A stretch of DNA of 64,000 nucleotides from Bacillales bacterium UBA784 (GTDB lineage Bacteria > Bacillota_I > Bacilli_A > RFN20 > CAG-288): the NCBI GenBank assembly GCA_002297045.1, contig DBJE01000013.1:272509-336508 (forward strand). Direction: 5' to 3'. Positions 6,273 through 23,739 of the stretch are shown in pieces; position 1 is the first letter of the stretch, and each line of letters opens with the position of its first letter. A model generated the notes under the pieces. It was not told the DNA's origin. It saw only the letters and a list, made by a program, of their open reading frames with translations, and searched no databases. The position numbers were made by a program, and so were the translations under genes.

Positions 6273-7841
6273 ATGAAGAAGAATACTTTGCTGTTCAGTT
6301 CTGTTTTAGCTTTAAGTCTGTTTGGCTGTGCACCGCGCGGAGGAAGCCTTTCTTCTGCCTCAGAGAGTACAACTATGCAGCCGTCCGGGACAATTGTAGA
6401 TGGAATCCGTGTTGCCTATTCTAGGCATGGAAGCTACCTTCTCCGTGCCGAAGTCCAGATTCAAAATGAGGTTGCCAAATCTGTACATTTCGATGAGGTC
6501 GTTTTTTCTGCCTCACCGGATTCGAGCGGAAATTCAATCGCCAAGGCAGTTGATCAAAAAGAAGGCGATAACGTCATTGCCTTAACTACGGGAAAAGATG
6601 ATAAGGTAACGACTACTTATTATGCAAAGTACCTCACGGTAAACGGAAAAACCTATACTGCCTCGGTTAGCGAAGGCAAGCTTTTCTATAAAAATGGTGA
6701 CGAAGATTATGATGTCCTTGCCAAAGGATATACAAGCCAACAGGACAGGGCCAAACTTTATCATGTTCTGACCACAAACTATGCCTTTGGTTCCGATAAG
6801 GACGGAAAGGAAATCGAGGGACTTGTGGCTCCGATTTATTCAAAGGCCAGCAATAGTTCCACCTATTGGCCTTCCGGTGTATATGGATTAGGCTGGAAGG
6901 CAAATATTGCCAAGATTGAGAAAGCCCTTGTAGGCAAAGATCTTTCTAAGGTCTCTTCCGACTATAAGAAAGCGTCCGACTCGGCAAAGTCGAAGACTGG
7001 ATTTGTCGACAATGTCGACACCGGTGCCACTATTTCTTCTTTCAAGTCCTATATTACAACAGCCGCAAGTGCATTCACCGGTGAATCCCGTGTCGTTGAA
7101 CAATTCGGATTAGATCATAATAATTGCTTCTCCCGTACTGAACTTGTTGTCGGCGAGGACAATAAGGTTGTCTATGCCAACATCAATGAAACCAATCAAT
7201 TCCTTTCTAGGCTTGCCCAGAGAAATTCCGATACGGGAAACGATGCTCCTATTGTCCGATTCCATACCGATGCGACGGATAAAGCCGAGGAAGTCAACAA
7301 TTATTATTCCCAGTTTGTTTCGGTCAACGGAAAAGTCTGGACCGGAACAGCAAAAGATAAGGCGGCAAGCCGGGAATATGTCACCTATTCTAGCGGAAAC
7401 GATCAAGATGCCCTGGCTTACTATTCTTCCAGTGCCTATTTGGCTAATGAGTACTATAATGCCCAGTTCCTGAATCTGATTTCTATTGCCAAGGATGCCA
7501 ATGGCTCCGCTTCTTCCGACAAGGTGACCTATGGAAACAGGACTGCCACGAAAGCCGAAAACGGAAACAACTATTGGACTACCGGCCATGGTGCACCGGA
7601 AGACAAAAAACCGGATAACTATGCGACTTGGTGGAAATGGAATGTCGCTGCAGTCGAGAATGCCTTTGTCGGACTTGATTTTACAAGTCTGACTAAGGAT
7701 AGTGCGGTCACTTCTCAGACCGCAGATGCTGACGGACACAAGTATGTCTCCATTAACGGGGTTAAGACTGGCGCTTCTAGGAGCGAAACGAAGAGCTATG
7801 TCCAGTTTGCCCATGAAGCGTATGCTTATTTGGTTAAGTAG
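6273..7841 (+). CDS. extracytosolic lipoprotein with two FMN-binding-type modules (PplA-like)
   Basis: ORF 6249..7841. The start is taken at ATG 6273 (MKKNTLLFSSVLALSLFGCAP, lipobox L-F-G-C) with GGAGG 9 nt upstream. There is an internal duplication (YAKYLTVNGKTYTAS / YSQFVSVNGKVWTGT; YWPSG...KIEKALVGKD / YWTTG...AVENAFVGLD). Each half ends in a flavinylation-type motif, VDTGATISS and VKTGASRSE. Confidence 0.65.
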   Translation: MKKNTLLFSSVLALSLFGCAPRGGSLSSASESTTMQPSGTIVDGIRVAYSRHGSYLLRAEVQIQNEVAKSVHFDEVVFSASPDSSGNSIAKAVDQKEGDNVIALTTGKDDKVTTTYYAKYLTVNGKTYTASVSEGKLFYKNGDEDYDVLAKGYTSQQDRAKLYHVLTTNYAFGSDKDGKEIEGLVAPIYSKASNSSTYWPSGVYGLGWKANIAKIEKALVGKDLSKVSSDYKKASDSAKSKTGFVDNVDTGATISSFKSYITTAASAFTGESRVVEQFGLDHNNCFSRTELVVGEDNKVVYANINETNQFLSRLAQRNSDTGNDAPIVRFHTDATDKAEEVNNYYSQFVSVNGKVWTGTAKDKAASREYVTYSSGNDQDALAYYSSSAYLANEYYNAQFLNLISIAKDANGSASSDKVTYGNRTATKAENGNNYWTTGHGAPEDKKPDNYATWWKWNVAAVENAFVGLDFTSLTKDSAVTSQTADADGHKYVSINGVKTGASRSETKSYVQFAHEAYAYLVK

Positions 7842-7908
7842 TTTTTTGCCTTACCATGGTCTCTCCATGGGTCAGGCCTCGTCTAGATATTAAATTGAGG
7901 TGAATCAA

Positions 7909-9213
7909 ATGTTTCATTTATTCCGTTCTGATGAATCCGCCCACATTCCAGGATATAAGGAGCAGACGAGGAATCTTCCTGTCTGCTCCTATGATCCGGA
8001 GTTTGTCTATATTCCCTGTGTGGATAATCATGGTAATCCCCTTATTAACGCCCTTCCAATCTCCTCTTCCGTTAAGAAGGGAACGCTCTTAGGCCTTCGT
8101 GCACCGGATGATTTTCCTATCTATTCTTCCGTCTCCGGAAAAATCGAAGGTAGGCAGAAGAGGGTAAGGTCCTCTGGCAGAATCAGGGATTGCTTTGTTA
8201 TCCGTAACGACCACAAGGGAGAATGGGATACCCTTACTCCCTTAAAGCCGGCAAACGAAGTTTCCAGAGAGGAAATCATCAACGCCATTAAGAAGAGCGG
8301 CGTCATCGGATTTGGCGGAGCAGGTTTTCCTACTTACCGGAAGTTCAATTCCGGTAAGGAATGCGATGTCTTAATCCTTAATGCCATCGAGTGCGAACCT
8401 TTCCTTACTACCGACTATGTCTATGGTGCAAAGGAGTGTGAATATGCCTTCCTTGCCATCCCTTATCTTCTTAAGGCAAGCGGTGCGAAGAAGGTTGTCT
8501 TCTGCACGAAGAAGGATAAGCCTGCCCTTATCGATGCCTGCGGGAAATGGAAGGCGAAGTACCCTTCTCTTCCTGTCGAGCTTGTGTTGGCCAAGGATGC
8601 CTATCCTAGGGGGTATGAGCGCAACCTTGTCACTTTAGTTACCGGCAAGGAGTATGCCCACATTCCGATTGAGGCTCAGGCCATCGTCGACAATATTTTC
8701 ACTTTTATTTCCTTAGGCCGCTACTTCACGGAGGGAAAGAGTGCAGACTTACGTTGCATCACCGTATCCGGTGAAGTAAGCAAACCAAGGAATATTTTGA
8801 CTCCTTATGGAGTCTATGCCTTGGACCTTCTGCAAAGGGCAGGATACAAAAACGATTCGTCTCTTAAGATTTTAAACGGCGGTCCAAGGAACGGAAACGT
8901 CCTTGATGACGAAAAGTTCGTTCTGCTTCAGCAGGCCGATGGGATTACGGTAAGGAAAAAGTCGTCTTACCGGGCAGAGCCCTGCTGGCATTGCGGAAAC
9001 TGCGCGGAAGCCTGCCCTAGGGACCTTCAGCCTGTGCAGATTCAGATGGCCTACAAGGCAAACGATCTTCAGCGCAGGATTGAACTGAATGCCGATAGGT
9101 GCGTAGGATGTGGACTTTGTTCTTATTCCTGCCCAAGCCGGATTGAAGTCAGCCAGCATGTCAGGGCCGCTAAGGCCTTAGTCATCAAGGCGAGGAAGGA
9201 GGCAAAGAAGTAA
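7909..9213 (+). CDS. rnfC: RnfC paralog 1 (electron-transport complex subunit C)
   Basis: GVIGFGGAGFPTY (the NADH/FMN-site motif of RnfC/Nqo1-like proteins). There are two ferredoxin motifs, CWHCGNCAEACP and CVGCGLCSYSCP. ATG 7909 has GAGGTG 8 nt upstream; the track's GTG 7900 is the alternative. Confidence 0.85.
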   Translation: MFHLFRSDESAHIPGYKEQTRNLPVCSYDPEFVYIPCVDNHGNPLINALPISSSVKKGTLLGLRAPDDFPIYSSVSGKIEGRQKRVRSSGRIRDCFVIRNDHKGEWDTLTPLKPANEVSREEIINAIKKSGVIGFGGAGFPTYRKFNSGKECDVLILNAIECEPFLTTDYVYGAKECEYAFLAIPYLLKASGAKKVVFCTKKDKPALIDACGKWKAKYPSLPVELVLAKDAYPRGYERNLVTLVTGKEYAHIPIEAQAIVDNIFTFISLGRYFTEGKSADLRCITVSGEVSKPRNILTPYGVYALDLLQRAGYKNDSSLKILNGGPRNGNVLDDEKFVLLQQADGITVRKKSSYRAEPCWHCGNCAEACPRDLQPVQIQMAYKANDLQRRIELNADRCVGCGLCSYSCPSRIEVSQHVRAAKALVIKARKEAKK

Positions 9214-9217
9214 CATT

Positions 9218-10354
9218 ATGGATTATCCGAAACAGTTTACACCTCATATTCGGAGAAAGGCGTCGACCTTCTCGCAGAGGAGGGAGTTCTTCCTTTGCGT
9301 CTGTGTCCTTTGGATTAGCAGTAGGATTTACTATTTCGTCACTGCCGGAAAAGGATATGGATTAGCCGTCATTCTTCTTGGCATCACCGGAATCGTCTTT
9401 GCCATGATTCCTGATATCTTTTGGAACCTTAGCGTATTCTTCTCCAAAGAACATAAACAGGATGCGTTTAAAGAGTTTCTCTATCGGGTCATTCATTCCT
9501 ATTCCTTTGTCACCGGCCTTCTTCTTGCCTTGCTTTGCCCGATCGGTCTCCCCTTCTGGAAACTTGCCATCGGTGCAGTTCTTTCTGTGCTTGTCTTTAA
9601 GCTGTTCTTTGGCGGATTCGGAAAGAACATCCTCAATCCTGCCATCTTCGGACGTGTCTTCCTTCAGCTTGCTTTTACCAGTGACAGGAAGACGTATCTA
9701 GGACAGAAGCCGGATGATTTCACTATTTCAACCGGTGCTTCCGTTACCGGATTAATCAACAATAAGAACGGTTTCTCTCCAATTGTCAGTGGTCTTTCCT
9801 TTAAGGATAGGATTATCGGCAATTACCGAGGAACCTTAGGCGAAACTTTTATCCTTGTCCTTCTTGCCATCTGCGTTTATCTTTGTGTCCGGAAGATCAT
9901 CGACTGGCGTGTCCCTGTCACTTATATCGGAACCCTTTTTATCGCCTTTGTCCTGATGTTCCTTTCTGCCGGCGACGGCGGCTGGGCGTTCAAGGATGCC
10001 TTTAGGTATCTTGCTATCGGCGGCATCTTCTTCGGCGGTATCCTCTGTCTGACTGATCCGGTCACTTCTCCGACTAGCCGCTCTGGCCGGATGAGGTTTG
10101 CCTTGACTAGTGCCCTTATCACCCTTCTTATCCGTCTTTATACCGGGTCTCCGGAAGGCGTCGCCTATTCCATCCTGATTGCCAATGTGATGACTCCCTT
10201 CTTTGACAAGATCAACACTGGCCGGACAAATAAGAAACTCGTCCCTATTGCCGTCAATGCTTCCCTTTTTGCTCTCGTCCTTCTCTCTGCCCTTGTCTAT
10301 GGGTTTAGGAACAAAATCAATCCTTCTACGGGAAGGTTCCTGAAAGGTAGGTAA
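9218..10354 (+). CDS. rnfD: RnfD paralog 1 (NqrB/RnfD family membrane subunit)
   Basis: Polytopic. Motifs are FGKNILNPAIFGRVF, STGASVTG (covalent-FMN motif position) and LTDPVTSP. Confidence 0.85.
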   Translation: MDYPKQFTPHIRRKASTFSQRREFFLCVCVLWISSRIYYFVTAGKGYGLAVILLGITGIVFAMIPDIFWNLSVFFSKEHKQDAFKEFLYRVIHSYSFVTGLLLALLCPIGLPFWKLAIGAVLSVLVFKLFFGGFGKNILNPAIFGRVFLQLAFTSDRKTYLGQKPDDFTISTGASVTGLINNKNGFSPIVSGLSFKDRIIGNYRGTLGETFILVLLAICVYLCVRKIIDWRVPVTYIGTLFIAFVLMFLSAGDGGWAFKDAFRYLAIGGIFFGGILCLTDPVTSPTSRSGRMRFALTSALITLLIRLYTGSPEGVAYSILIANVMTPFFDKINTGRTNKKLVPIAVNASLFALVLLSALVYGFRNKINPSTGRFLKGR

Positions 10355-10356
10355 AG

Positions 10357-10881
10357 ATGAATCAAAGGTTTAAAAACTGGATTATCGGTGCTTCTGCCGC
10401 CCTTATCCTTGGTGCTGCCTCCGTTGGGCTATATTTCGGAATCGTCCCGGAGAAAAGCCCTCTTTCCGATAATGTGATGAGCAGGTTTGAAAAAGATTCC
10501 CCGACCGGGAGGGACTCTCTTGATCTTTCTTCCCTTTCGGCTGATGATTCAAAAATGATTAAGGAAGCCGATAAAGTCTATCTTTCTTCTTCCTCGGTCT
10601 CTGCCTATTATTTTGGTCTGAGTTCTTATGACGGAAGCTATGGTTCGCTTAACTTTGCTATCGGGGTCAAGGACTCCGTCGTCACCTATTATCATTTCAT
10701 CGATGCCGGAGCGGCGGATGATCTTGGCGCCGGACAGGCCCAGGATAACGAAGGGAAAAGGTTTGTCGGCTACACTCTTGGCGGAGACGATGTCAGGGCC
10801 GGAGCGACAGCCGAAGAGACCTATTCCGATAGGAAAAAGGCGGTCGATGCGGCTCTGACTTTTGTGAAAGGAAGGGATTAA
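10357..10881 (+). CDS. rnfG: RnfG paralog 1 (FMN-binding subunit)
   Basis: 174 aa with an N-terminal TM anchor (WIIGASAALILGAASVGLYF). FMN_bind-type C-terminus with VRAGATAEE. The position between rnfD and rnfE is as expected. Confidence 0.7.
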   Translation: MNQRFKNWIIGASAALILGAASVGLYFGIVPEKSPLSDNVMSRFEKDSPTGRDSLDLSSLSADDSKMIKEADKVYLSSSSVSAYYFGLSSYDGSYGSLNFAIGVKDSVVTYYHFIDAGAADDLGAGQAQDNEGKRFVGYTLGGDDVRAGATAEETYSDRKKAVDAALTFVKGRD

Positions 10882-10883
10882 CG

Positions 10884-11594: not shown

Positions 11595-11595
11595 T

Positions 11596-12165
11596 ATGCA
11601 GTTCATCGGTGCAATTCTGACGGCGTTCTTCGCCAAGAACCTGATTCTTCAGGGACATGATCTCCGTGATGGCATCCATCTTGGCAATAGACACTACCCT
11701 CACCGTCTTGTTTTTCTTGGTCTTTATGTCCTAGAATCCCTTGTCATCTCTATCGTCGGATATTTAATCTCCAAATATGGAAAAGGAAGGGAGATCCTTT
11801 CCTATCTTGCTTTCTTTATCTATGCCCTCATCGCCGCCTTAAGGACAGGCCTTTTCTCTCTCGCTTTCAAGAAATTCTTCCCCCAGCTTGAAAAGGAACT
11901 CCATGAAGACTGGATTGAACGTGCCTGCTCGACTGCCTTAATCGCCGTCGGTGCCTCTGCCTTGACCTGGGCTAGCGTCTCTGCGGCGGAAAGGGTAGGA
12001 CTTAGGCTTGCGATGCCTATTGGCTTTGCCCTTTCTTCCTTTGTCTTCTCTGCCCTTTATGAGCGGGTAAGGGAAGATGGAGATGCCAAGGGCTTCCGGG
12101 GAATCCCTCTTCTTCTTCTTTCTTTGGCCGGTGCCTCGCTTGGCGTAGTCAGGAGGAGCTTCTGA
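11596..12165 (+). CDS. divergent RnfA-like membrane subunit
   Basis: The N-terminal FIGAILTAFFAKNLILQG and C-terminal YERVREDG..KGFRGIPLLLLSLAGASL resemble RnfA/NqrE ends. The protein has only one Cys (ERACSTA). Its position is after the rnfE-like gene. Confidence 0.55.
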   Translation: MQFIGAILTAFFAKNLILQGHDLRDGIHLGNRHYPHRLVFLGLYVLESLVISIVGYLISKYGKGREILSYLAFFIYALIAALRTGLFSLAFKKFFPQLEKELHEDWIERACSTALIAVGASALTWASVSAAERVGLRLAMPIGFALSSFVFSALYERVREDGDAKGFRGIPLLLLSLAGASLGVVRRSF

Positions 12166-12196
12166 TTTTTTCCTTTGTAGGAATCTGTTAAAATAG

Positions 12197-12223
12197 ATAC
12201 GCTGCCTAGGCAGCGTATTTTTT
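12197..12223 (+). terminator. Intrinsic-terminator-like palindrome plus T5 directly abutting the apbE-1 start codon
   Basis: ATACGCTGC-CTAG-GCAGCGTAT (perfect palindrome) is followed by TTTTT, then ATG at 12224. It lies 32 nt downstream of the rnfA-like stop. Confidence 0.6.
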
Positions 12224-13756
12224 ATGAAAACCAAAATCATCTGTCTGCTTTTTTCCTCTCTTTCCTTTTTCCTTTCTTCTTGCAAGGAAAACAAGGTGGA
12301 AAGAATCGAAACCCTGTCGAATCCCTATCTGTTTTCCACGAAGGGGGAGATACGGATAAACAGCGACGAAAGCCTTTCTCTCTCTCCTTTTGATACTTCC
12401 ATCACCGGAAGCATTTATTATTACGGGGGTGACTTCACGGAAGAAGAACTTGCTTCTATCCATTCTCTTTTTGACTACTCTTTTTCTTATTATCATGCTC
12501 TCTCCGACCGGCATTATTCTTATTCCCGGTATGATGAAAAGGGAAATAAGGCCGAGGAAATCAACAATGTCCGGACAATCAATGAAAGCTACGGTACGGG
12601 AAAAAAGGTAAAAGTTGATTCTTTCCTGTATGACCTACTAAAGAAAAGCTATGAGTTTTCCAGGAACAGCGATGGAAAGTTCAACAGGTTTTTAGGAACG
12701 CTGAACGACCTCTATGAGAATAAGCTTTCCTCTTTGGAAGAGGATGGTTCCTTGGATAGCGAATACAAAAAGAACAGCGTCCTGACCGTCACGACAAAAA
12801 GGAAGTTCTCCTCTTTCTCCGCCAATGAAAAGAACCGGATTTCCTCCCTAGTCTCTTCTCTTCCCCGGACAAAGGAAGAGAGGCAGGGCCTTCTCTCCTT
12901 TGATGATGCAACCTCTTCCGTCACCTTCAACAAATACAAGGACACGAAGAACCTGGAAATTTCCCTCGGGGGAAATGCCAAAGGATATGCCACGGAAAGG
13001 TTCTGCCGGCAGAGGCAGAAGGAATATCCTAATAGGTCCCTTGTCATCAATTCCGGCTCTTCTTCCATCAAGGCAATCGGACAGCGGCCGGACAAACGGG
13101 AATGGAAGATCCAGTATACGAACCCTTGCTATAAGGAAAGTATCGATCTTAGCCGGTACAATCCTTATGAAGTGGTGATTTCCCATAATGGGGCTTTTAA
13201 CCTCTCCACTTCCGGATATTACGAGCAGTATTTCTACTCTTATCTTCCGGACGGAGAGGGCGTTTATGATCCTAATTCTCCCTTTATCCTAAACAGCCAT
13301 ATTCTTAATCCTTCCACTGGGTATTCCACAAGGACGTTCGACCAGGTGTCCGTGTTTCTTAATGACACAGGCCTTGCCGATAGGTACACGACTGCCCTTA
13401 GGAACACTTCTTCCATTAAGGAGGCAGAAGCGCTCTTTGCTTCCCTCAATAAGATTTATTCTGTTTCCGATGCCGGGCTTAGGCTATGCCTTAAGGAAAA
13501 GGACGGCTCCCCTTATTTTTATAAAAGGTCGGACTACTCTCCTCTTCAGAGTAACGGGCTTCCCTGCATTAAAACTGCCAAGGGGGAGTATAGCGGAGAC
13601 TTTTCCGACCTTGACGAAGCACCGCAGGAATACCTCTCCCGATATGTCTCCTCCTTTGAGGAGGTCTATTACCTTACCGGCAATAGGAGGGAGAAGGCTT
13701 CCATGACGGAAGAGAACGGGAAACAAGTGATTTCCCGACTGGAGGAACTGAAATGA
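12224..13756 (+). CDS. apbE: ApbE-family FAD:protein FMN transferase, lipoprotein (copy 1)
   Basis: MKTKIICLLFSSLSFFLSSCKE is a lipobox signal peptide. ApbE motifs present are GGNAKGYATE, INSGSSSI, HILNPSTGYS and GLADRYTTAL. Confidence 0.8.
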   Translation: MKTKIICLLFSSLSFFLSSCKENKVERIETLSNPYLFSTKGEIRINSDESLSLSPFDTSITGSIYYYGGDFTEEELASIHSLFDYSFSYYHALSDRHYSYSRYDEKGNKAEEINNVRTINESYGTGKKVKVDSFLYDLLKKSYEFSRNSDGKFNRFLGTLNDLYENKLSSLEEDGSLDSEYKKNSVLTVTTKRKFSSFSANEKNRISSLVSSLPRTKEERQGLLSFDDATSSVTFNKYKDTKNLEISLGGNAKGYATERFCRQRQKEYPNRSLVINSGSSSIKAIGQRPDKREWKIQYTNPCYKESIDLSRYNPYEVVISHNGAFNLSTSGYYEQYFYSYLPDGEGVYDPNSPFILNSHILNPSTGYSTRTFDQVSVFLNDTGLADRYTTALRNTSSIKEAEALFASLNKIYSVSDAGLRLCLKEKDGSPYFYKRSDYSPLQSNGLPCIKTAKGEYSGDFSDLDEAPQEYLSRYVSSFEEVYYLTGNRREKASMTEENGKQVISRLEELK

Positions 13757-15354: not shown

Positions 15355-15390
15355 AAAATGGCTTGAACGATACGGAAAGAGGGAAATCCG

Positions 15391-15418
15391 TTCAATTTCA
15401 GGCAATTTCTGCTAGAAT
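15391..15418 (+). promoter_or_regulatory. candidate sigma-70 promoter with extended -10
   Basis: TTCAAT (15391-96), a 16-nt spacer containing TGc (15410-12), then TAGAAT (15413-18). It lies 34 nt upstream of ATG 15452. Confidence 0.35.
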
Positions 15419-15451
15419 AGAGCAAGTGCGAAAGCATTATCGAGGTTTCAT

Positions 15452-17755
15452 ATGAAAAATTTAAAGCTGTTGACTCTTCTTTCCCTCATTCCTGTTTTCT
15501 CTCTGGCTGGCTGTAAAGGCAATGCCGGGAGCGATTCTTCGTCTGTTTCTTCCTCTGTGCCGGAACAGACTTCTTCCTCCTCTAACGGCAGCCACGAGAT
15601 TTCCCCGGATCCCTATGCCCAGGTCCTGGACGGACTGGATAAGACGAAGGATGTCTTCCGGGATCAGTATAGGCAAACCCATACCTATCTTGGCGGATAT
15701 ACCGAGACGGTGAACGGAGTCAAGGTCTCCTATGGCTGGATCGAGTATACAAGCACCTGGGGAACCTACGGCGTCGCGGTCAAACTGACCATCACCGCCG
15801 AAGGAAAGATTAAGGAAATCAAGCTTGGTGCTCCGGATAAGGACGTCCACAACTTCACTCCGTCCTATGGACAGACTTCCGGGTACGATATTTATAACGA
15901 TTATATTGCCAACTATGAGAAGAATCTGAACGCGGCCTTCGCCAATAAATCGGTCAGGAACGCCTTTAATTCCCTTAAGGACGCTATCTGCGAACCGAAC
16001 CTTAAGCCGACGGAAACAGACAGCGGCACCTTCACCCCATCCAAGAATGATCCGACCGTCAAGGCCGGTGCCACCCAGACGGCAGCCCGCACGGAACGTG
16101 CCATTTTTGCCGCCGCCGGCGCCTATCTTAGCGAGTACAATCCAAACGCCCGCATCTTTGCCCATGTCTATAACAACCTAAAGGCAGAGGATAGGCCTAC
16201 CGATAACAATGTTTCGTTAGGCTATAGGAAGACCACGGACGGAAGTTATGGCTATGCTAGGTATCAGTCCTGGGGCAGCTACTATGGTGCCGCCGTCAAA
16301 ATCAAGGTCAAGGCAAACAACGTCATCGACCATGTCTATTTAGGAACCCCAAGGAAAGGCGCCCATAACTTCACTCCCTGGTACGCTGTCTCCGATCCGA
16401 ATAATTTCATTGAGTTCTACCAGAAGGCCGAAGAACTGGTCAACAACCAGCTTGTCGGCAAGGTGGTGAATGAACAGCTGAGGAATAAGTACAAGTCTGC
16501 CACGCTTGAACCTGGAACCTCTACCTTTACACCGGCTGAAACGATTCTTTCTGCCGGTGCGACACAGACCAATGTCCGTCTGGATCGTGCCATCGCCTCC
16601 GCTAGGGAAGGCATCCTTTCCTCTGTGGAAGCTAAACCGGATGAGGGCGGAGTGGTCGACGAAGTCCTCCCTGGTGCCGACACTATTTCCGGATCGGAAA
16701 TTTATGCCTCCTACAACCATCTTAAATCCGATTATGTCACCCCTGAGGAAAATCAGAACGGATACTATAATGCCCAGACGATGACTGCCTATGGCTGGAG
16801 GCGTTATGAGAATCCCTGGTCCAAGGGCAGCTATTATGGTGCCGCCGTTTCTCTGACCTTTGACAAGAATAAGAACATCACTGATGTCAAAGTCGGTGTC
16901 TCCCAAAAAGGCGATGTCAATAGGACGACAATCTACCGTGCCCACTATGATTCCGACCCACTTTATCTAGATAACTATGCACAGTATTTGATTCAGGATA
17001 GGAAGGCTGCCTTAAGCGGGAAGACCGCAGCCGATGTCTATAAATCCACACTCTCTGCCGGCGTGGAAAATAATGACGGCAATCTTATCTTCACTCCTGG
17101 CGACTATGACTTCCTTGGCGCTGGTGCCACGCAGACGACTAGCCGAATCAATGTCGCCCTCTTCGAGGCGGCCTCTGCCTATAGGCTTGCCACTGATCCC
17201 TTCACAAAGAATGTGTTTGAGGATTTAAAGCTTGTCAAAGGAACGGACATCAAGGACAACACCTTCCACCAGGGCGGAAAGAAAGGCACGGATTCAAAAA
17301 CCGGTACCGCTTATGTCTATGGCTATACCGTTTACTACATCTCGTCCTGGCAGAGCTACTATGGTGCAGCCGTCAAGCTTACTTATGATAGCGACAGGAA
17401 GATTACGGCTGTAGAGACCGGAGAACCGAAAATTGAGGATTCCGCTAAGTCTTGGGCCGCCGCGACGAACTTCACCGCAAGTTATACCTTCACTTCTACC
17501 TCTTCCCGCAGTGACTATCTAAAGTATTACACGACCATCAAGGAGGAAATCGATAAAGCCCTTATCGGAAAGACCATCAACGAAGAACTTGCCCAGCAGT
17601 TTGCTGCCGCCAAGGTCGAATTCGATCCGAATGACAGTGAGAAGAACACCTATACTCCTGCTTCTGTCCGCTTCGTCGGAGCAGGTGCCACGCAGACTGA
17701 TACCCGTGTCGCTGCTTCTATCTATGGTGCCCTTCAGGCTGCCCTGAAAAAGTAA
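15452..17755 (+). CDS. lipoprotein with four tandem FMN-binding-type modules, each with a GATQT flavinylation motif
   Basis: MKNLKLLTLLSLIPVFSLAGCKG has a lipobox. There are four ~170-190-aa repeats of the pattern ...Y.S.WG.YG(A/V)AVK(L/I)....I..(I/V)..G.P....HNFTP.Y......FTP...(A/G)GATQT..R...A. The Thr codons of the four GAT motifs are at 16073-75, 16562-64, 17129-31 and 17690-92. Confidence 0.7.
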   Translation: MKNLKLLTLLSLIPVFSLAGCKGNAGSDSSSVSSSVPEQTSSSSNGSHEISPDPYAQVLDGLDKTKDVFRDQYRQTHTYLGGYTETVNGVKVSYGWIEYTSTWGTYGVAVKLTITAEGKIKEIKLGAPDKDVHNFTPSYGQTSGYDIYNDYIANYEKNLNAAFANKSVRNAFNSLKDAICEPNLKPTETDSGTFTPSKNDPTVKAGATQTAARTERAIFAAAGAYLSEYNPNARIFAHVYNNLKAEDRPTDNNVSLGYRKTTDGSYGYARYQSWGSYYGAAVKIKVKANNVIDHVYLGTPRKGAHNFTPWYAVSDPNNFIEFYQKAEELVNNQLVGKVVNEQLRNKYKSATLEPGTSTFTPAETILSAGATQTNVRLDRAIASAREGILSSVEAKPDEGGVVDEVLPGADTISGSEIYASYNHLKSDYVTPEENQNGYYNAQTMTAYGWRRYENPWSKGSYYGAAVSLTFDKNKNITDVKVGVSQKGDVNRTTIYRAHYDSDPLYLDNYAQYLIQDRKAALSGKTAADVYKSTLSAGVENNDGNLIFTPGDYDFLGAGATQTTSRINVALFEAASAYRLATDPFTKNVFEDLKLVKGTDIKDNTFHQGGKKGTDSKTGTAYVYGYTVYYISSWQSYYGAAVKLTYDSDRKITAVETGEPKIEDSAKSWAAATNFTASYTFTSTSSRSDYLKYYTTIKEEIDKALIGKTINEELAQQFAAAKVEFDPNDSEKNTYTPASVRFVGAGATQTDTRVAASIYGALQAALKK

Positions 17756-17769
17756 AAGGCGAAAAGCAA

Positions 17770-19077
17770 ATGATTAGGAAGACTAAAGTACTTCAGGGAA
17801 GGATGAGAGTGTCTACCGAGCCGACCATCTCGCTTAAGCTCCCTCCCTTCCTTTATATCGAAGCGACGAATGCAAACTGTCCGAAGGCCGACATCTATGT
17901 CCAGCCTGGCGATCAGGTCAAGCTTTACCAGGTTATCGGAAGGCGGCACGGGAAAGGGTTTGACTTACCTATCCATGCCACCTGTTCGGGAACCTATTCC
18001 GGACTGGAAAAGCATTACTATCGGAACGGGAAAAGGGTCGAGTTCAGGAAGATCGAGAACGATGGAAAGGATACTTCTGATCCCGGCTTTGGAAAAGAGC
18101 GTTCCGATGAGGAAGTCTCAAACCTCACCAAAAAGGACAGGGCCGAAATCTTGAAAAACACCGGCTCTGTCGGACTTGGCGGCTCCTGCTATCCTACTTA
18201 TCTCCGTTTTGAATCCGATAAGAAAATCGATACCATCCTGGTTAATGCCGTAGAAAGCGAGCCCTTTGTCTCTGCTGACCATACTCTTGCCCTTGATGAA
18301 AGGGAAAGCGTCATCAAGGGGACAAAGTTACTTAGGCAGGCTTTCTCCTGCCCTAAGGCGGTAATCTGCTTCAAGAAGAAAGACCAAGACCTGCTCCAGG
18401 CCTATGGACAATATCTTTCGGCAAACCAGACTTCTGCCATTTCGGCTAGGACAGTAAGCAATGACTATCCTCAGGGATGGGAGAACGCTCTTGTCAAATC
18501 CGTTACCGGGAAAGTCATCCCTCTAGGTCATCTTCCTAGGGAATACGGAGTCAGGAACTTCAATATTGCCACGGTTGTCAGCATCTATAACGCCATCAAA
18601 TATAACCTTCCTACCATCGAACGTCTGGTTTCCGTTTCCGGCAACGGCGTAAGGAATCCTGCAAACGTGAAGGTCCGAGTCGGTGCTCCGGTCAAATACG
18701 TGATTGCCGCCTGCGGAGGTTATAGCCTTGGCGCAAAGAAGGTTCTTGTTCTTGGCGGCCCTAGGTCGGGGACTTCCCTTCCTAGCGATGATGCCATTGT
18801 CACTAGGGACGTTCCTTCTATCCTCGTCTTCAATGATAAGAAGGTGAAAGTCTCACCTTGCATCCGCTGCGGATCCTGTGTGATGTCCTGTCCTGTCGGC
18901 CTTCAGCCGGTTACCATCAGGAACACGAGGAACACAAGGCCTGTCGACCGGGAAAAAATTAAGCTTCTCCATCCTCAGGATTGCATCGGCTGCGGCCTAT
19001 GCTCCTATTCCTGCACGAGCCATATCGATGTCATGTCTTCCGTCGCCCGTGCCAAAGTCATTGCGAGGTTAAAGTAA
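17770..19077 (+). CDS. rnfC: RnfC paralog 2
   Basis: GSVGLGGSCYPTY. Ferredoxin motifs are CIRCGSCVMSCP and CIGCGLCSYSCT. It is collinear with paralog 1. Confidence 0.85.
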   Translation: MIRKTKVLQGRMRVSTEPTISLKLPPFLYIEATNANCPKADIYVQPGDQVKLYQVIGRRHGKGFDLPIHATCSGTYSGLEKHYYRNGKRVEFRKIENDGKDTSDPGFGKERSDEEVSNLTKKDRAEILKNTGSVGLGGSCYPTYLRFESDKKIDTILVNAVESEPFVSADHTLALDERESVIKGTKLLRQAFSCPKAVICFKKKDQDLLQAYGQYLSANQTSAISARTVSNDYPQGWENALVKSVTGKVIPLGHLPREYGVRNFNIATVVSIYNAIKYNLPTIERLVSVSGNGVRNPANVKVRVGAPVKYVIAACGGYSLGAKKVLVLGGPRSGTSLPSDDAIVTRDVPSILVFNDKKVKVSPCIRCGSCVMSCPVGLQPVTIRNTRNTRPVDREKIKLLHPQDCIGCGLCSYSCTSHIDVMSSVARAKVIARLK

Positions 19078-19078
19078 T

Positions 19079-20224
19079 ATGGAATTCGTCAAAGTTAGTG
19101 GTCCCTTTATCCGCCGGAAGGATTCGGTCTCCCGGAGGATGCTGGATGTTTTAATCGCTCTTCTTCCTGTCGTCATCGCTGCCTTTGTCTACTATCCTAT
19201 CCCTGCCCTTCGCAACATCTCCCTTTCCATTTTGACAAGGTTACTCTGTGAACTTGTCTTTGTCCTGATTTATCATCGCATTCCTTATGACGGAGAGAAG
19301 CACACCTTTAAACAGTGGTGGGATAATTTTAGAAAGTCTTTTACCCTCAATAACATTACGGTTCCTCTTGTCTCGGGTGTCATTTATGGCTTAAGGAGGC
19401 CTGTTGCCACAAAAGACAATCCCAATTTCATCTACTATCCGCTTATCATCGGAGCAATTTTCGGCAGGGTGATTGGTAAGCTTATCTTCGGCGGAACAGG
19501 AAAGAACATCTTCAATCCTGCCCTTGTCGGTTGGGTCTTCGCCAAACTCTGCTTTGGAAGCCATTACGATTATCCTTCTGCCAGTAAGTTCCTCTCCAAT
19601 GAAATCTTCACTGGTGCGACAAGCCTTGACCCTTCCCATTTCTCCCTTGCCAATAAGGTCTATTCCATCAATTCCTCTGCCCTGCTCGACAGGTTCCTCG
19701 GAAAGAGGACCGGCCTTGTCGGAGAGACCTGTAAAATCGCCATCCTTGTCGGGCTTGTCTATCTTATCGTCCGTCATACGATTGACTGGCGTATTCCGGC
19801 TAGGTACCTTGGAACGGTCGCCTTTAGGTCACTGATTCTCGGCACCATCATTTTCGGGGCCAACAAGTCCACTCTTTCTGCTTCCTATCCTTTTGTCTTC
19901 AGGACCTACCAGCTTTTAAGCGGCGGCTTACTCTTTGGGGCGGTCTTCAGGGCGACGGATCCCGTCACTTCCCCGCTCACCCATCCTGACCGTCTGATCT
20001 ATGGCGCCTTCCTTGGCGTCTGCACGAGGATCATCCGTCTTTTCGGTTCCCTTCCGGAAGGTACTGCCTTCTCGATTCTGATGGGCAATGCCCTGACTCC
20101 GGTCATCGGCTACTATAAATGGTCGACTACCCGATATACCTGGAAGAATCTGACCCTGCTTGCTTCAGTCATCCTCGTTCCGACCCTGATTAGGATCTGG
20201 GCAGGATGCAGGAGGGTTTTCTAA
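19079..20224 (+). CDS. rnfD: RnfD paralog 2
   Basis: Motifs are GTGKNIFNPALVGWVF, FTGATSLDP (covalent-FMN motif) and F(AGG)ATDPVTSP. Confidence 0.85.
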   Translation: MEFVKVSGPFIRRKDSVSRRMLDVLIALLPVVIAAFVYYPIPALRNISLSILTRLLCELVFVLIYHRIPYDGEKHTFKQWWDNFRKSFTLNNITVPLVSGVIYGLRRPVATKDNPNFIYYPLIIGAIFGRVIGKLIFGGTGKNIFNPALVGWVFAKLCFGSHYDYPSASKFLSNEIFTGATSLDPSHFSLANKVYSINSSALLDRFLGKRTGLVGETCKIAILVGLVYLIVRHTIDWRIPARYLGTVAFRSLILGTIIFGANKSTLSASYPFVFRTYQLLSGGLLFGAVFRATDPVTSPLTHPDRLIYGAFLGVCTRIIRLFGSLPEGTAFSILMGNALTPVIGYYKWSTTRYTWKNLTLLASVILVPTLIRIWAGCRRVF

Positions 20225-21673
20225 ATGAAATCGAAAATTCTTAAAGTCTCGGTTACCTTAGCCGTGATTGCCGGCGTGTCCGCCGGTCTTATCGGTCTTG
20301 TCAATGCCATTACCGAACCGGTGATTGCCGCCAATGCCTTAAAGAAAGTCGAACAACAGAAAAAAGTTCCCTTTGGAAACGAGGTTGACATCGCCGAAAC
20401 GGAAAACGATCTTAGCTCATACAAGCTAACCTACGTAAAGAAGAGCTGGGATGCTTCACAGGGCGGAAACAAGATCGGAACCCTCTTTCAGGCGGAAGGA
20501 ACCAATCAGTATGGTTCCGTCTCCCTTCTTATCGGGGTCTACACCGATGGCAGTCTGACGGATAGGTCCATTCTGGAAAACACCGAATCCTATAAGACGA
20601 CCTTGGAAGACAACTATATTTCCGTCTATAACCAAGCTGCCAAGGAGAACAAGAAACAGGCCCTAGGTCAGATAAAATGCGGTGCGACCTTCGGAGCTAC
20701 CTTAATCAATAATAGGGTCACCGAGGCCGAGGACCTTGCTTCCGGCAAGGGTTCCTCCGTCACGGCCGGACTTCCTCAGGAGGCGCTTAATCTCTTCGGC
20801 GATCAGGCGGACAACTATTCCGAAGACTCTCTTTCTGCCTATAAGCTCACCTATGTTCAGAATGCCTACACTGCCAATAAGGGAGATAGTAAAGTCGGAA
20901 GGATTTATTCTTCCGCCCTGAAAGCGGACAATGAGACGATTCCGGTCTACCTAGCCATCGACAAGGATAACCAGTATGGGAATAGGTGCTTTGGACCGGA
21001 TTACACGGCTTCTTCCTCGGCCGAAGGCTTTGTCTCCGGATTCAATTCCGCCAAGGACAAAAAGGCCTATCTCGATTCCCTTAAAGGAAACGGAAGCTCG
21101 GACGATGACATTACGGCCGGCCCTACCTGGCCCTATGATGCCAATAAGGATGATGAGGATTCTTCCTCTTCCTCTGCGGCCTTGGATGCCGCGCAGACTG
21201 CCCTTCAGGGCTTTGCCAAGGAGGCGAGGACAATCAGTGACGGAACGGCGACAAGGGATACCCGGTTTGCCTGTTTTGATTCCGGAGAGGTCGATGCCTT
21301 CACCCAGATTAGCAATGCAACCGGGACCTTTATCCAGAAAATCGACAAGGCTACCAAGGGCGGAAAGGATGTCGCCTATGTCTATGACCTAAAGGGTGAA
21401 AACGATACCCAGGGCGGAAAGAAACACAGGGAAATCTCCTTTGCCGTTTATATCGGCGGGGCCCTTGGTAAGATTGCCGTCATCGAAAACGGTCAGACGC
21501 CCAGCTACTATGGAAGGATTAAGAGTAAGTTCATCGATGCCTTTAATACTTCTTCCGACCGGAAAGCCTTCCTGAATCAGAATAGGCAGGAAATTGTCGC
21601 CGGCGCTTCCTCCGGTGCTGACCTCCTTGTCAACAGGAGGAAGGAAGCCATTTTGGATGCGGAGGCCCGTTAA
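20225..21673 (+). CDS. rnfG: enlarged RnfG paralog 2 (482 aa, multi-module FMN-binding subunit)
   Basis: N-terminal TM anchor (VSVTLAVIAGVSAGLIGLV). There are three FMN_bind-like modules beginning SYKLTYVKKSW, AYKLTYVQNAY and FIQKIDKATKGG. Modules 1 and 3 end in IKCGATFGA and VAGASSGA. Module 2 has a degenerate ITAGPT. Confidence 0.7.
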   Translation: MKSKILKVSVTLAVIAGVSAGLIGLVNAITEPVIAANALKKVEQQKKVPFGNEVDIAETENDLSSYKLTYVKKSWDASQGGNKIGTLFQAEGTNQYGSVSLLIGVYTDGSLTDRSILENTESYKTTLEDNYISVYNQAAKENKKQALGQIKCGATFGATLINNRVTEAEDLASGKGSSVTAGLPQEALNLFGDQADNYSEDSLSAYKLTYVQNAYTANKGDSKVGRIYSSALKADNETIPVYLAIDKDNQYGNRCFGPDYTASSSAEGFVSGFNSAKDKKAYLDSLKGNGSSDDDITAGPTWPYDANKDDEDSSSSSAALDAAQTALQGFAKEARTISDGTATRDTRFACFDSGEVDAFTQISNATGTFIQKIDKATKGGKDVAYVYDLKGENDTQGGKKHREISFAVYIGGALGKIAVIENGQTPSYYGRIKSKFIDAFNTSSDRKAFLNQNRQEIVAGASSGADLLVNRRKEAILDAEAR

Positions 21674-21675
21674 TT

Positions 21676-22476
21676 ATGATTGCGGATAAAAATGTTTCGG
21701 CTGTCAGCCAGCCTAGTGAAATGCCGGCAAAGAAAGCAAAACCGAAGAGCGAATCCTCTCTTCGCCATAAGGCTGCCTTTGTCACCGGTATCTTTAAGAA
21801 CAACCCACTCTTCGTCGCCGTTTTAGGAACCTGCCCGGCCTTAGCCGTCACGACCTCCTTGGAGGTTGCCCTTGGCATGGGCCTTCTCTTCACCTTCGTC
21901 CTTGTCTGTTCCAACGTTCTGATTTCCGCCCTTCGTAAGCTCATCCCCGAGGAAATCGAGATTCCTGCCTATATCGTCATCATCGCCGCCTTTGTGACCG
22001 TCGTCAAAAGGAGGACGAACGCCTTCATACCGGAACTGTACTCCTCCCTTGGCGTCTTTCTTTCCCTGATTGTCGTCAACTGCGTCGTCCTTGGGCGGGC
22101 AGAGGCTTTTGCCAAATATAACGGAGTCCTTGACTCCCTTCTTGACGGCCTTGGAAACGGCATCGGCTATACTCTGGCCATTTCTATCATCGGCCTCATC
22201 CGGGAAATCCTCGGCTCTGGTTCCATCACAATCGGCAAGGTCTTTACCTTTATCCATGGAAGCAACAATAGTCCTATTGTCCTTCCGATTCTGAAAGGGA
22301 CCGGATACGACTTCTCCATGTCCGTCTTTACCAATGCCGCAGGCGGCTTTATCGTCTTCGGTCTTGTCTTATTTATCATCAACATCATCACCATGCATAA
22401 GAACAACAAAAAGAAATTCGCCAGGAAGAAGGCTAGGCTCACCGCCGCCTCTCTTAGCGGAAAGAAAGGAGCCTAA
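21676..22476 (+). CDS. rnfE: RnfE paralog 2 (canonical)
   Basis: FKNNPLFVAVLGTCPALAVTTSLE and LGVFLSLIVVNCVVLGRAEAFA are hallmark RnfE/NqrD motifs, with both conserved Cys present. Confidence 0.85.
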   Translation: MIADKNVSAVSQPSEMPAKKAKPKSESSLRHKAAFVTGIFKNNPLFVAVLGTCPALAVTTSLEVALGMGLLFTFVLVCSNVLISALRKLIPEEIEIPAYIVIIAAFVTVVKRRTNAFIPELYSSLGVFLSLIVVNCVVLGRAEAFAKYNGVLDSLLDGLGNGIGYTLAISIIGLIREILGSGSITIGKVFTFIHGSNNSPIVLPILKGTGYDFSMSVFTNAAGGFIVFGLVLFIINIITMHKNNKKKFARKKARLTAASLSGKKGA

Positions 22477-22481
22477 GGAAT

Positions 22482-23120
22482 ATGTCTCAGGCCACACCTT
22501 ACATCGTAACCTTCCTGCTTGCCATTCTGACGGACAGGCTCGTCAATAACGTCGTCCTCAGCCGTTTCTACGGAATCTGCGCCTTTATGGGCGTATCGAC
22601 GAAGGTCAAGAACTCCCTTTCGATGGGACTTGCCGTCGTCTTCGTCATCGTCCTTGCTTCCTTAATCTGTTGGCCGCTTTACTACTTCGTCCTTGTCCCC
22701 TGCCAGATCACCTTCAGGGATACCCTTACCTACATCTTAGTCATTGCCTCCCTTGTCCAGATTGTCGGAAGGTTCATCAAGAAGTTCTCTCCTTCCCTCT
22801 ATAAGGCATTTGGTATCTATCTCCCCTTGATTACGACAAACTGTGCCGTCCTTGGCGTCGTACAGGAGAACACCGCTGTTGCCCTTGAGGCAAATGCCAC
22901 TGCCCTTGAAAGGGCCCAGAACTTCGGTAAGTGCAGGGCAAATGCCCTAGGTACCTCTCTTGGCTACCTCATCAGGATTGTCATCTTCGCCTGTATCCGC
23001 GAGCGGAGGAAGGAGAACACTTCTTCGACTCCTAAGGCCCTTCGGGGAACGGCAGAAGCCCTGATTGTCGCCGGAATCATGGCGATTGCCATCATGGGCT
23101 TAAGGGGAATCGGTGCTTAA
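22482..23120 (+). CDS. rnfA: RnfA paralog 2 (canonical)
   Basis: NNVVLSRFYGICAFMGVSTK and YLPLITTNCAVLGV are hallmark RnfA/NqrE motifs with both conserved Cys. The C-terminal ACIRER motif is also present. Confidence 0.85.
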   Translation: MSQATPYIVTFLLAILTDRLVNNVVLSRFYGICAFMGVSTKVKNSLSMGLAVVFVIVLASLICWPLYYFVLVPCQITFRDTLTYILVIASLVQIVGRFIKKFSPSLYKAFGIYLPLITTNCAVLGVVQENTAVALEANATALERAQNFGKCRANALGTSLGYLIRIVIFACIRERRKENTSSTPKALRGTAEALIVAGIMAIAIMGLRGIGA

Positions 23121-23379
23121 ACTACTTCTTTCCCGGCCTTTGCAGATCACTTTCGGCATTCTCTTTGTCCTTCTTCTTGTCGGTGTGTTTCTTCTTGTCT
23201 GTGTCCTCAACCACCGCACACCGGTTCCGAAAGGATGCGAGAAGCTAAGACCGGATGCCAATCAGTGTGCAGGCTGTCAGCTCTTCTCTTCCTGTCCGAT
23301 CCATCGTGTTCCGGACAAGGAGACGAAGCCTCAGAAAAAGAACAGGGCTGAAACTAAGGAGAAAAAAGATCATGAATAA
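23113..23379 (+). CDS. small membrane-anchored Cys-rich protein (88 aa)
   Basis: GTG start overlapping the rnfA stop, with AAGGGG 6 nt upstream. It has one TM helix (ITFGILFVLLLVGVFLLVCVL), then C-x9-C-x2-C-x5-C (GCEKLRPDANQCAGCQLFSSCP), then a Lys-rich tail. The function is unknown. Confidence 0.45.
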   Translation: MLKLLLSRPLQITFGILFVLLLVGVFLLVCVLNHRTPVPKGCEKLRPDANQCAGCQLFSSCPIHRVPDKETKPQKKNRAETKEKKDHE

Positions 23380-23701
23380 ATACGTAATTGCTTTAATCGC
23401 CCTTGCCGTGCTCCTTTTCATCGGAGCCATCCTTGGCGTCCTTCTCACGATTGCAAGCAAGACGCTTGCGGTGAAGGAAGATCCTCGGATCAAGGTCGTG
23501 GAAAGCAGGCTTCCGAATGCAAACTGCGGAAACTGCGGATATCCCGGCTGCCATGAACTTGCCGCTGCCCTTGTCTCCGGTGAGGAGACGAAGGTCACGA
23601 AGTGCAAGGTCGGGAACAAGGAAAAGAACTTCATTCCGATTATCAACTATCTTAAGGAACACCCGGGAGAAGACGGCAATAGCCACGTTCCTAGTCTGTA
23701 A
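23372..23701 (+). CDS. rnfB: RnfB-like protein, N-terminal module only (TM anchor plus Cys-cluster domain, no polyferredoxin domains)
   Basis: The start is taken at ATG 23372 (AAGGAG upstream) within ORF 23255..23701. MNKYVIALIALAVLLFIGAILGVLL... LPNANCGNCGYPGCHELAAALVSGEETKVTKCKVG matches the RnfB N-terminal Fe-S motif (LP..NCG.CG..GC..(Y/L)A.A...G......C). The protein ends after 109 aa. Confidence 0.7.
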   Translation: MNKYVIALIALAVLLFIGAILGVLLTIASKTLAVKEDPRIKVVESRLPNANCGNCGYPGCHELAAALVSGEETKVTKCKVGNKEKNFIPIINYLKEHPGEDGNSHVPSL

Positions 23702-23715: not shown

Positions 23716-23739
23716 GGGGGCCTGGCGGCCTCCTTTTTT
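23716..23739. terminator. bidirectional hairpin terminator between convergent rnfB-like and LD-carboxypeptidase genes
   Basis: AAAAA-GGGGGCC-tggc-GGCCTCC-TTTTTT (7-bp stem with one G:U), with A/T runs on both sides. Confidence 0.65.

Follow-up and report, generated by a model that had tools for sequence, protein, structure and literature searches.

Background

Flavinylated extracytosolic proteins are a proposed cytochrome-free route by which electrons pass beyond the membrane in Gram-positive and gut bacteria, and the membrane machines that feed such proteins are known for few systems. Here we describe a locus of Bacillales bacterium UBA784 (contig DBJE01000013.1) in which two gene sets related to the Rnf complex are accompanied by two lipoprotein ApbE enzymes, predicted to attach flavin mononucleotide (FMN) to proteins, and by two multi-module lipoproteins, g1 and g9. 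Positions are those of the 64,000-nucleotide (nt) stretch that was analyzed, which we call the window.

In canonical Rnf (7ZC6, 8AHX/8RB9, 9ERI), four cysteines of RnfA and RnfE coordinate an intramembrane [2Fe-2S] cluster that links RnfB to RnfG, and RnfB's C-terminal domain is needed to accept ferredoxin (PMC12174285). The same review traces the origin of Na+-NQR to the loss of rnfB from a duplicated rnf operon. Meheust et al. (2021; PMC8238504) describe RNF clusters with multi-flavinylated RnfG and propose a second, outward path that branches at RnfG. In NQR/RNF-like two-subunit systems (Meheust 2021; Huang 2024), an NqrF-type NAD-binding domain (PF00175) is fused with a domain like RnfD, and the RnfD flavinylation site is absent. 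Huang et al. (2024; PMC11334425) also define FMN-bind2 domains, which are about 160-170 residues long and occur in two or four copies in lipoproteins of Gram-positive bacteria. The Listeria extracellular electron transfer (EET) locus (PplA, FmnB, EetA/B, FmnA, Ndh2, DmkA/B) takes its electrons from Ndh2 and demethylmenaquinone. PF07456 is the eetB family, and Listeria EetB is the flavin adenine dinucleotide (FAD)-binding subunit of an exporter of the energy-coupling factor (ECF) type that supplies extracytosolic flavinylation (PMC9973259).

We favor, with a probability of roughly 0.55, the reading that the locus holds two Rnf-derived redox modules, each with its own ApbE and multi-flavin lipoprotein; set 1 would work one way, outward, and set 2 would be a modified Rnf with an outward branch.

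Gene order and operon structure

Gene identities, repeats, motifs, the loss of cysteine ligands and of rnfB, conservation and synteny were computed from the DNA and its relatives. Sixteen genes, all on one strand and separated by gaps of -8 to 97 nt, run from the initiator methionine of the first lipoprotein (MKKNT, position 6273) to the rnfB stop at 23701. Open reading frame (ORF) positions and profile matches both agree with the gene order and placement given in the initial annotation.

Operon A (set 1)
6273..7841, + strand: g1, 530-residue lipoprotein, first gene of the operon, two modules of ~240 residues
7900..9213, + strand: rnfC1, NADH/FMN-binding subunit with two CxxCxxCxxxCP motifs
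9218..10354, + strand: rnfD1, membrane subunit, 378 residues, candidate covalent-FMN site S175 (STGAS)
10357..10881, + strand: putative rnfG1, 174 residues, N-terminal transmembrane (TM) anchor, AGAT (T151) ahead of a C-terminal helix
10884..11594, + strand: rnfE1, divergent RnfE, PF02508 at 3.1e-17
11596..12165, + strand: rnfA1, very divergent RnfA
12224..13756, + strand: apbE1, 510-residue lipoprotein FAD:protein FMN transferase, last gene of the operon

Operon B (set 2)
13753..15354, + strand: apbE2, 533-residue lipoprotein FMN transferase, first gene of the operon
15452..17755, + strand: g9, 767-residue lipoprotein, four FMN-bind2-like modules
17770..19077, + strand: rnfC2, with Complex1_51K (1.6e-31), SLBB and Fer4
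19079..20224, + strand: rnfD2, 381 residues, candidate covalent-FMN site T181 (FTGATS)
20225..21673, + strand: rnfG2, TM anchor and three homologous RnfG-type domains
21676..22476, + strand: rnfE2, canonical, both Cys present (LGTCP, VNCVV)
22482..23120, + strand: rnfA2, canonical, both Cys present (GICAF, TNCAV), PF02508 at 1.7e-48
23113..23379, + strand: micro-protein, 88 residues, one TM helix, tail C-x10-C-x2-C-x5-C
23372..23701, + strand: short rnfB, 109 residues from MNKYV, TM helix and small [4Fe-4S] domain

The array had been taken for a single apparent operon, a view that does not survive comparison with relatives: it is two operons, separate in relatives and joined only in the window's species, which meet at a 4-nt overlap of apbE1 and apbE2. 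Operon B is kept in standard-code Bacilli metagenome-assembled genomes (contigs L007/L019 and L008) and in the relatives L016-L018, which read AGG as methionine and carry two apbE genes upstream of it. Operon A stands alone, flanked by unrelated genes, in L022, from a sister species, and in L025. Relative to L016/L017 the window has ~6 kb extra, from g1 to rnfA1, between the upstream gene and apbE1. Each half of the gene order thus recurs in related genomes, but contigs of the window's species are the only ones in which the joined form was found. Because the joined form is confined to one species, the "supercluster" is best described as a recent juxtaposition of two independently conserved operons. 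When metagenomes were scanned for remoter relatives of set 1, matches came from the same species and a single sister species only.

A gap of 58 nt separates rnfA1 from apbE1 (12147-12218). At the end of rnfA1 there is a hairpin with a T-run behind it, and there is also a 22-nt stretch that is perfectly palindromic, ATACGCTGCCTAGGCAGCGTAT. Operon A may thus contain an internal terminator or attenuator. A promoter scan gave counts equal to those of shuffled sequences, and the list of predicted terminators, mostly intragenic matches, gives no conclusion about transcription units.

All protein translations were made with AGG read as methionine. In the 16 same-strand genes AGG accounts for 153 of 5782 codons, against only 43 for ATG, and it occupies conserved methionine positions, such as those in GGPM of RnfC and FMATDP of RnfD. 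Across the long ORFs of the window the frequencies are ~3.0% for AGG and 0.65% for ATG. Usage of the two codons in L016 (a contig of "Bacillales bacterium UBA4682"), L017 and L022 is like that of the window, and more distant relatives use AGG at 0.2-0.5%. The published clade with AGG reassigned to methionine (genus UBA7642, order RFN20) agrees with the window's AGG usage. Given this reassignment, public gene calls made with the standard code carry arginine at ~2.5-3% of positions in these proteins.

Comparison with described systems

Set 2 resembles canonical Rnf in its C-D-G-E-A-B gene order, the TGAT motif of RnfD and an RnfG-type first domain in its RnfG. It differs in its short RnfB, the micro-protein that precedes rnfB and the three-domain RnfG. 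Set 1 shares a clear RnfC and RnfD with the canonical complex and departs from it in having no RnfB, no canonical [2Fe-2S] ligands and no recognizable RnfG.

The combination of Rnf, a multi-site RnfG, an additional multi-site extracytosolic protein and apbE also occurs in the RNF clusters of Meheust et al.; electron transfer from Rnf to extracytosolic flavins is a class already outlined (PMC8238504). The substrates in that survey were found with the FMN_bind profile, which g1, g9 and RnfG1 escape. Tandem Rnf sets, a set without RnfB and [2Fe-2S] ligands, and a short RnfB were not found in the accessible portion of the article, nor were the names RFN20, UBA7642, CAG-288 and UBA4682 in the available portion of its supplementary text. 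What is new here is a second Rnf set, split off long ago, of which the RnfC-D-G path is left, a probably flavinylated family of lipoproteins that current profiles do not see, and an input side built from a short RnfB and a micro-protein; the long lipoprotein ApbE enzymes are also among the new elements of the locus.

Like the Listeria EET locus, the window encodes a multi-FMN lipoprotein, a lipoprotein of the ApbE/FmnB type and an EetB homolog, but its electron source is of the Rnf type; no Ndh2, DmkA/B, EetA or FmnA was found among the window ORFs scanned. Set 1 is comparable to the two-subunit systems in its proposed logic, by which one of the two transmembrane paths would be kept and transfer would run one way, from NAD(P)H to extracytosolic flavin. 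It differs from them in its separate RnfC, its RnfD site and its vestigial RnfE and RnfA, and PF03116 is the only domain of RnfD1 and RnfD2. As a second, diverged rnf operon without rnfB, set 1 also recalls the proposed ancestor of Na+-NQR (PMC12174285), but it gained no input subunit such as NqrF and has lost the [2Fe-2S] site as well.

Set 1, a probable reduction to an RnfC-D-G path

RnfC and RnfD of set 1 are clear. RnfC1 matches Complex1_51K (2.1e-25), RnfC_N and Fer4 in Pfam, scores 262.9 against a TIGR01945 cutoff of 245.95, and contains the canonical GGAGFP and ECEP motifs. RnfD1 matches PF03116 at 3.2e-65. Identity to the set 2 counterparts is only ~28-31% for RnfC1 and RnfD1, which indicates an old split and speaks against a recent tandem duplication of set 2 as the origin of set 1, an idea that we reject.

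The remaining subunits are divergent. RnfG1 has no Pfam, NCBIfam or PDB-sequence match, and hhalign detected no similarity to the domains of RnfG2, to the modules of g1 or to the FMN_bind2 family; its ortholog in L022 retains the AGAT motif, and no relative was detected beyond orthologs. We assign it as a putative RnfG by position, TM anchor and conserved AGAT motif only. When RnfE1 is aligned to RnfE of 9ERI and 7ZC6, GMCP is replaced by GLTL and NC by SS, leaving Thr and Ser at two Cys positions, and the L022 ortholog has identical residues at both. RnfA1 reaches 23.0 bits (9e-5) against PF02508, below the gathering score of 23.8, and its alignment to RnfA of 9ERI has an E value of 0.23 but is colinear. 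A deletion has removed the region of the first Cys from RnfA1, the position of its second Cys is shifted or ambiguous, and the same holds in the sister species. No rnfB was found in operon A of the window, L022 or L025, and the genome could still carry one elsewhere. The two Rnf sets of the initial annotation are thus borne out: RnfC and RnfD are present in both, and RnfE2 and RnfA2 match strongly; in set 1 RnfE is weak, RnfA falls below threshold, RnfG is unrecognizable and there is no rnfB.

The loss of the ligands is conserved in the sister species. Set 1 proteins are 67-84% identical to their sister-species orthologs, all genes are intact, and the apbE1 ortholog follows rnfA1 in both L022 and L025. 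Ratios of nonsynonymous to synonymous substitution rates (dN/dS) are 0.05-0.16 for set 1 (rnfE1 ~0.07, rnfG1 ~0.16, rnfA1 ~0.16) and 0.05-0.22 across every gene tested in both sets; synonymous divergence is saturated (dS > 1), so the values are qualitative only. Together these comparisons indicate that set 1 is under purifying selection and is not decaying.

Because set 1 has neither RnfB nor the [2Fe-2S] cysteines, we take the ferredoxin half of the Rnf loop to be unable to work in it.

Set 2 keeps the Rnf core and alters the input side

Set 2 encodes homologs of all six Rnf subunits and retains the four [2Fe-2S] cysteines. RnfC2 scores 306 with TIGR01945, exceeding the cutoff of 246, and aligns to RnfC of 9ERI at 1e-63; RnfD2 matches PF03116 at 1.6e-77; RnfE2 matches PF02508 at 1.1e-61 and scores above the cutoff of NF009070 (234.5). 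None of the membrane cofactor sites of true Rnf is missing from set 2, so it is not simply an outward conduit.

The candidate flavinylation sites of RnfG2 are T155 (CGAT), T301 (AGPT, degenerate) and S462 (AGAS). TIGR01947 matches residues 10-122 at 2.6e-8, which is below its curated cutoff, and FMN_bind reaches an E value of 0.026. Alignments between the three domains by hhalign gave 3e-14, 1e-10 and 1e-8. The CGAT of domain 1 is invariant in four orthologs and the domain 3 site is conserved as AGAS, AGAT or SGST; the domain 2 site reads GAT in standard-code relatives and GPT in the clade that reads AGG as methionine.

The oddity of set 2 lies on its input side, in the short RnfB and the cysteine-containing micro-protein, both of which had been noted in the initial annotation and both of which proved to be conserved in relatives. 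PF04060 (2e-12) is the sole domain of the short RnfB, which lacks the C-terminal poly-[4Fe-4S] domain that accepts ferredoxin. The short RnfB family comprises ~43 clusters of 69-125 residues with PF04060 only, and recurs in L007 and L008. An assembly truncation or frameshift is ruled out: many contigs independently carry the 105-125-residue form, and the next gene, convergent and encoding an S66 peptidase, lies at 23738, 37 nt past the rnfB stop. The micro-protein has no Pfam match; three of its cysteines are invariant, its dN/dS is ~0.22, and it is kept between rnfA and rnfB in L007, L008 and L016.

Two families of multi-module lipoproteins

The modules of g9 are ~170 residues each, mutually 31-39% identical, and each ends in AGATQTxxR, giving four candidate FMN sites (T208, T371, T560, T747). 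Direct searches found no Pfam or NCBIfam match even at E<=10, and searches of PDB sequences with module profiles were negative. A word-indexed search with g9 recovered only 11 clusters; a profile made from 20 aligned modules and searched exhaustively recovered 66 representatives (E<=1e-3), of which many contain 2-7 repeats. More than half of the representatives scanned (33 of 63) match Pfam FMN_bind, the best at 2.4e-15, and in one of them, P0024, the module profile (positions 43-171) and FMN_bind match the same residues. By this transitive link we take the g9 modules to be divergent FMN_bind domains, a homology for which the sequence comparison makes a convincing case; hhalign runs of single sequences against the module profile were uninformative. 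The modification motif is invariant among homologs. As in FMN-bind2 (PMC11334425), the motif stands before a C-terminal helix in g9 and its 2-module relatives, and g9 fits this subtype by size, copy number (2 or 4) and host group; it differs in that its modules lie under Pfam detection. Orthologs of apbE2 stand upstream of the 4-module gene in L007, L008 and L016-L019.

The AlphaFold2 (AF2) model of a g9 module is confident (predicted local distance difference test, pLDDT, 88) and shows a sheet of four strands together with helices, the GAT motif lying where the last helix begins. The structure prediction of the 4-module lipoprotein proposed earlier as a check yields, for one module, a confident model but no significant PDB neighbor. 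Foldseek matches of the g9 and g1 module models to IscU and ketosteroid isomerase (E ~0.1-0.4) were dismissed as noise. In another contig, L010, a 2-module relative of g9 (P0010, 664-2573) stands alone, convergent with a gene for a cytoplasmic Flavin_Reduct protein (PF01613) and with no rnf or apbE nearby.

The case for g1 is weaker. Its N and C modules are homologous (hhalign 2.5e-38), and each ends in TGA(T/S), giving the candidate FMN sites T261 and S510. It has no Pfam or NCBIfam match at E up to 10, and none of the 33 clusters of its family has a Pfam domain. Across the family G-A-T is invariant at the module ends, in the extended form V-x-TGAT(M/I)(T/S), and the Cys of the lipobox is conserved as well. 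Modeled confidently with AF2 (pLDDT 90), the C module has a three-stranded N-terminal sheet followed by a beta-rich insertion and helices, with the motif before the last helix; Foldseek against the PDB found nothing at E<=0.001, and a module profile search of PDB sequences gave no match.

Aligned whole, a g1 module matches the FMN_bind2-like family with an hhalign probability of 12-24%, over its last third only. With the predicted insertion excised, the core reaches 91% (E 9e-7, 101 columns; shuffles <=0.5%), a figure that depends on the segment chosen by the analyst, as two of three excisions gave 91% and one gave 16%. This dependence weighs against the reading and makes the link between g1 and FMN_bind probable rather than shown; we regard the relationship as tentative and the family as probably flavinylated. 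FMN_bind searches on code-corrected translations, which had been suggested as a check, gave no direct match for either lipoprotein, an outcome that the initial annotation had named, taken literally, as refuting its interpretation; homology is recovered indirectly, convincingly for g9 and tentatively for g1. Gene context lends the g1 link some support: in the standard-code relative L014 a long apbE comes directly after a g1-like gene, and a NusG_II/PF07456 gene pair stands before it.

Flavinylation sites, lipoboxes and FAD supply

The array contains 11 candidate (S/T/A)GA(T/S) flavinylation sites and one degenerate AGPT, close to the figure of about 10 given in the initial annotation. The candidate motifs are invariant across homologs, with apbE next door in every context but two. 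Both ApbE proteins, also recognized earlier, score well above the PF02424 gathering score of 25.6 (ApbE1 1.7e-29, 103.6 bits, lipobox FLSSC; ApbE2 1e-22, 81.4 bits, lipobox LSGC). The lipoprotein signals that had been read on all the soluble proteins hold up: lipoboxes are present on all four (LFGC, LSSC, LSGC, LAGC), and their Cys is conserved in homologs. The density of flavin sites, which had been singled out as unusual, has published precedent, since Meheust et al. (PMC8238504) report multi-flavinylated RnfG in RNF clusters and proteins with up to 13 sites.

The system extends upstream of its previous bounds to a gene pair on the minus strand:

4130..4666, - strand: eetB homolog, PF07456 at 9.5e-30, ECF-S-like FAD-binding subunit
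4672..5196, - strand: NusG_II-domain membrane protein, PF07009 at 4.4e-9, paired with eetB

This extension (4130-5196) is indicated by the family matches of the two genes.

Proposed electron flow and alternatives

In the scheme that we favor, we infer from this gene content that the sites are flavinylated, which way electrons flow, that ions are coupled, and every contact between partners. The EetB homolog would export FAD for use by both operons, and both lipoprotein ApbE enzymes would transfer FMN from FAD to the Thr/Ser of (S/T/A)GA(T/S) sites in RnfD, RnfG and the lipoproteins. In operon A, electrons would pass from RnfC (NADH, FMN, two [4Fe-4S] clusters) to the flavins of RnfD, on to FMN of RnfG1 and then to the FMNs of the lipoprotein. 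Set 1 would act as a one-way NADH:extracytosolic-flavoprotein oxidoreductase, with RnfE1 and RnfA1 kept as a scaffold. Operon B would move electrons between a low-potential cytoplasmic donor and NAD(H), with ion translocation, and a side branch formed by the three-domain RnfG and the four-flavin lipoprotein would carry electrons off the membrane surface. More speculatively, the micro-protein may replace part of the lost ferredoxin-docking domain of RnfB. The final acceptor would lie outside the window; soluble flavin, a metal and oxygen are candidates, as is a flavinylated reductase whose gene lies elsewhere.

A sharper form of this proposal, in which operon A is a "half-Rnf" exporter that feeds the Pfam-invisible g1 family and ferredoxin docking in operon B is replaced by the short RnfB and the micro-protein, is tentative, and we place it somewhat short of even chances. 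If true, the replacement of docking implies a cytoplasmic partner unlike that of textbook Rnf. The initial annotation saw the whole array as an NADH-driven outward conduit; for set 1, with its intact-looking RnfC and RnfD, this is still the most economical reading, but set 2 is more than that.

Several points weigh against the favored scheme. The flavinylation sites of these proteins are candidates read from sequence. Neither g1 nor RnfG1 has a direct profile or PDB-sequence match to any flavoprotein, and Foldseek found none for g1; for g9, Foldseek against the PDB leaves the module apart from RnfG, with a best E of 0.1 and 8RB9_G at rank 41 (TM-score 0.39). One Cys of RnfA1 aligns to the second canonical Cys when MAFFT is run with RnfA2 included, and RnfE1 has a Cys one helical turn from the canonical position, so set 1 may have a non-canonical metal site. 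As reported before, no reductase, cytochrome or quinone enzyme is present among the window ORFs scanned, and no acceptor gene was found there.

Among the alternatives, the one that fares best, and which we still consider rather unlikely, is that the lipoproteins feed extracytosolic repair or detoxification (of oxidized envelope proteins, peroxide or oxygen) and not a respiratory-type acceptor. Flavinylated systems are tied to such functions in other bacteria (PMC8238504), and a rubrerythrin gene precedes operon A in L022; that neighbor is not conserved in the window, however, and neither the cluster nor the window ORFs scanned include MsrQ, DsbD or thioredoxin-like genes.

It is unlikely, too, that both sets are ordinary ferredoxin:NAD+ Rnf pumps whose lipoproteins are accessory (in scavenging or storing flavin, in assembly, or in some unrelated role at the surface) and carry no electrons. 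The six subunit types and four [2Fe-2S] cysteines of set 2 are what such isoenzymes would have, and g1 lacks direct similarity to any flavoprotein. Set 1, however, has neither rnfB nor the [2Fe-2S] ligands, and the RnfB of set 2 is missing the ferredoxin-accepting domain. The lipoprotein genes, moreover, are the conserved first or second gene of each operon across species, beside apbE, and the g9 modules are, by the transitive link, FMN_bind homologs with an invariant modification motif.

Flow in the opposite direction seems improbable. Surface flavoproteins would then be reduced from outside, with reduced flavins, a partner organism or H2-derived carriers as the donor, and pass the electrons through RnfG and RnfD to RnfC, making NADH; in set 2 the electrons could also reach a low-potential acceptor, driven by the ion gradient. 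Rnf is reversible (PMC12174285). Direction is not fixed by sequence, and the window ORFs scanned include no acceptor gene. Against this stands the metabolism expected of the bacterium, as surplus NADH to be shed is normal for a fermentative gut organism. Published flavinylated lipoprotein systems of Gram-positive bacteria also run outward (PMC9973259, PMC8238504).

That set 1 is a decaying, non-functional relic beside a working set 2 is very improbable: the RnfE1 and RnfA1 scores far under family cutoffs, the unrecognizable RnfG1 and the missing rnfB are what decay would leave, but all six genes are intact and constrained between sister species (67-84% identity, dN/dS 0.05-0.16), RnfC1 retains its canonical FMN/NADH and Fe-S motifs, the sister-species operon has its own lipoprotein and apbE, and the split from set 2 is old.

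Other genes in the window

Several neighboring genes concern the cell envelope. An AMP-binding enzyme followed by an MBOAT protein (28334-31633, + strand) looks like a DltA/DltB pair, and the convergent gene behind rnfB (23738-24739, - strand) encodes an S66 LD-carboxypeptidase; together they suggest a cell wall with teichoic-acid-type polymers, which would place the "surface" lipoproteins beneath or within the wall.

Four further lipoproteins of 544-705 residues (25900-28017, + strand; 34911-36545, - strand; 42732-44714, + strand; 44863-46695, + strand) have Ser-rich linkers after the lipobox and no Pfam domain. The last two are adjacent, have motifs such as FDMKMKD in common and are probably paralogs. 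Two neighboring membrane proteins (46760-49216 and 49558-50424, both - strand) have near-identical N-termini (MAKS.V.A.K...KKSKAI.VFDI.F...) and no Pfam match, and the longer (46760-49216) ends in a long Lys/Glu/Pro-rich tail.

Two ORFs call for caution. The 449-residue ORF at 4789-6138 (+ strand) overlaps the NusG_II gene on the other strand, and just the C-terminal ~280 residues, which match the TMEM164 family of membrane proteins at 3.6e-12, have the look of a true gene. The 220-residue ORF at 41848-42510 (- strand) overlaps a tRNA-Pro (42440-42516), is Gly/Arg/Pro-rich and of low complexity, and is probably not a gene.

Implications

Two families of likely ApbE substrates, and the short RnfB proteins, have been missed or mis-scored by profile-based surveys. 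In organisms that read AGG as methionine, mistranslation with the standard code partly explains why surveys miss such proteins. The locus, from an uncultured gut lineage with a reduced genome, is a natural dissection of Rnf, in which a full loop with an altered input can be set against the half that leads from NADH to the outer surface, and it makes the idea of a direct outward hand-off of electrons by RnfG testable.

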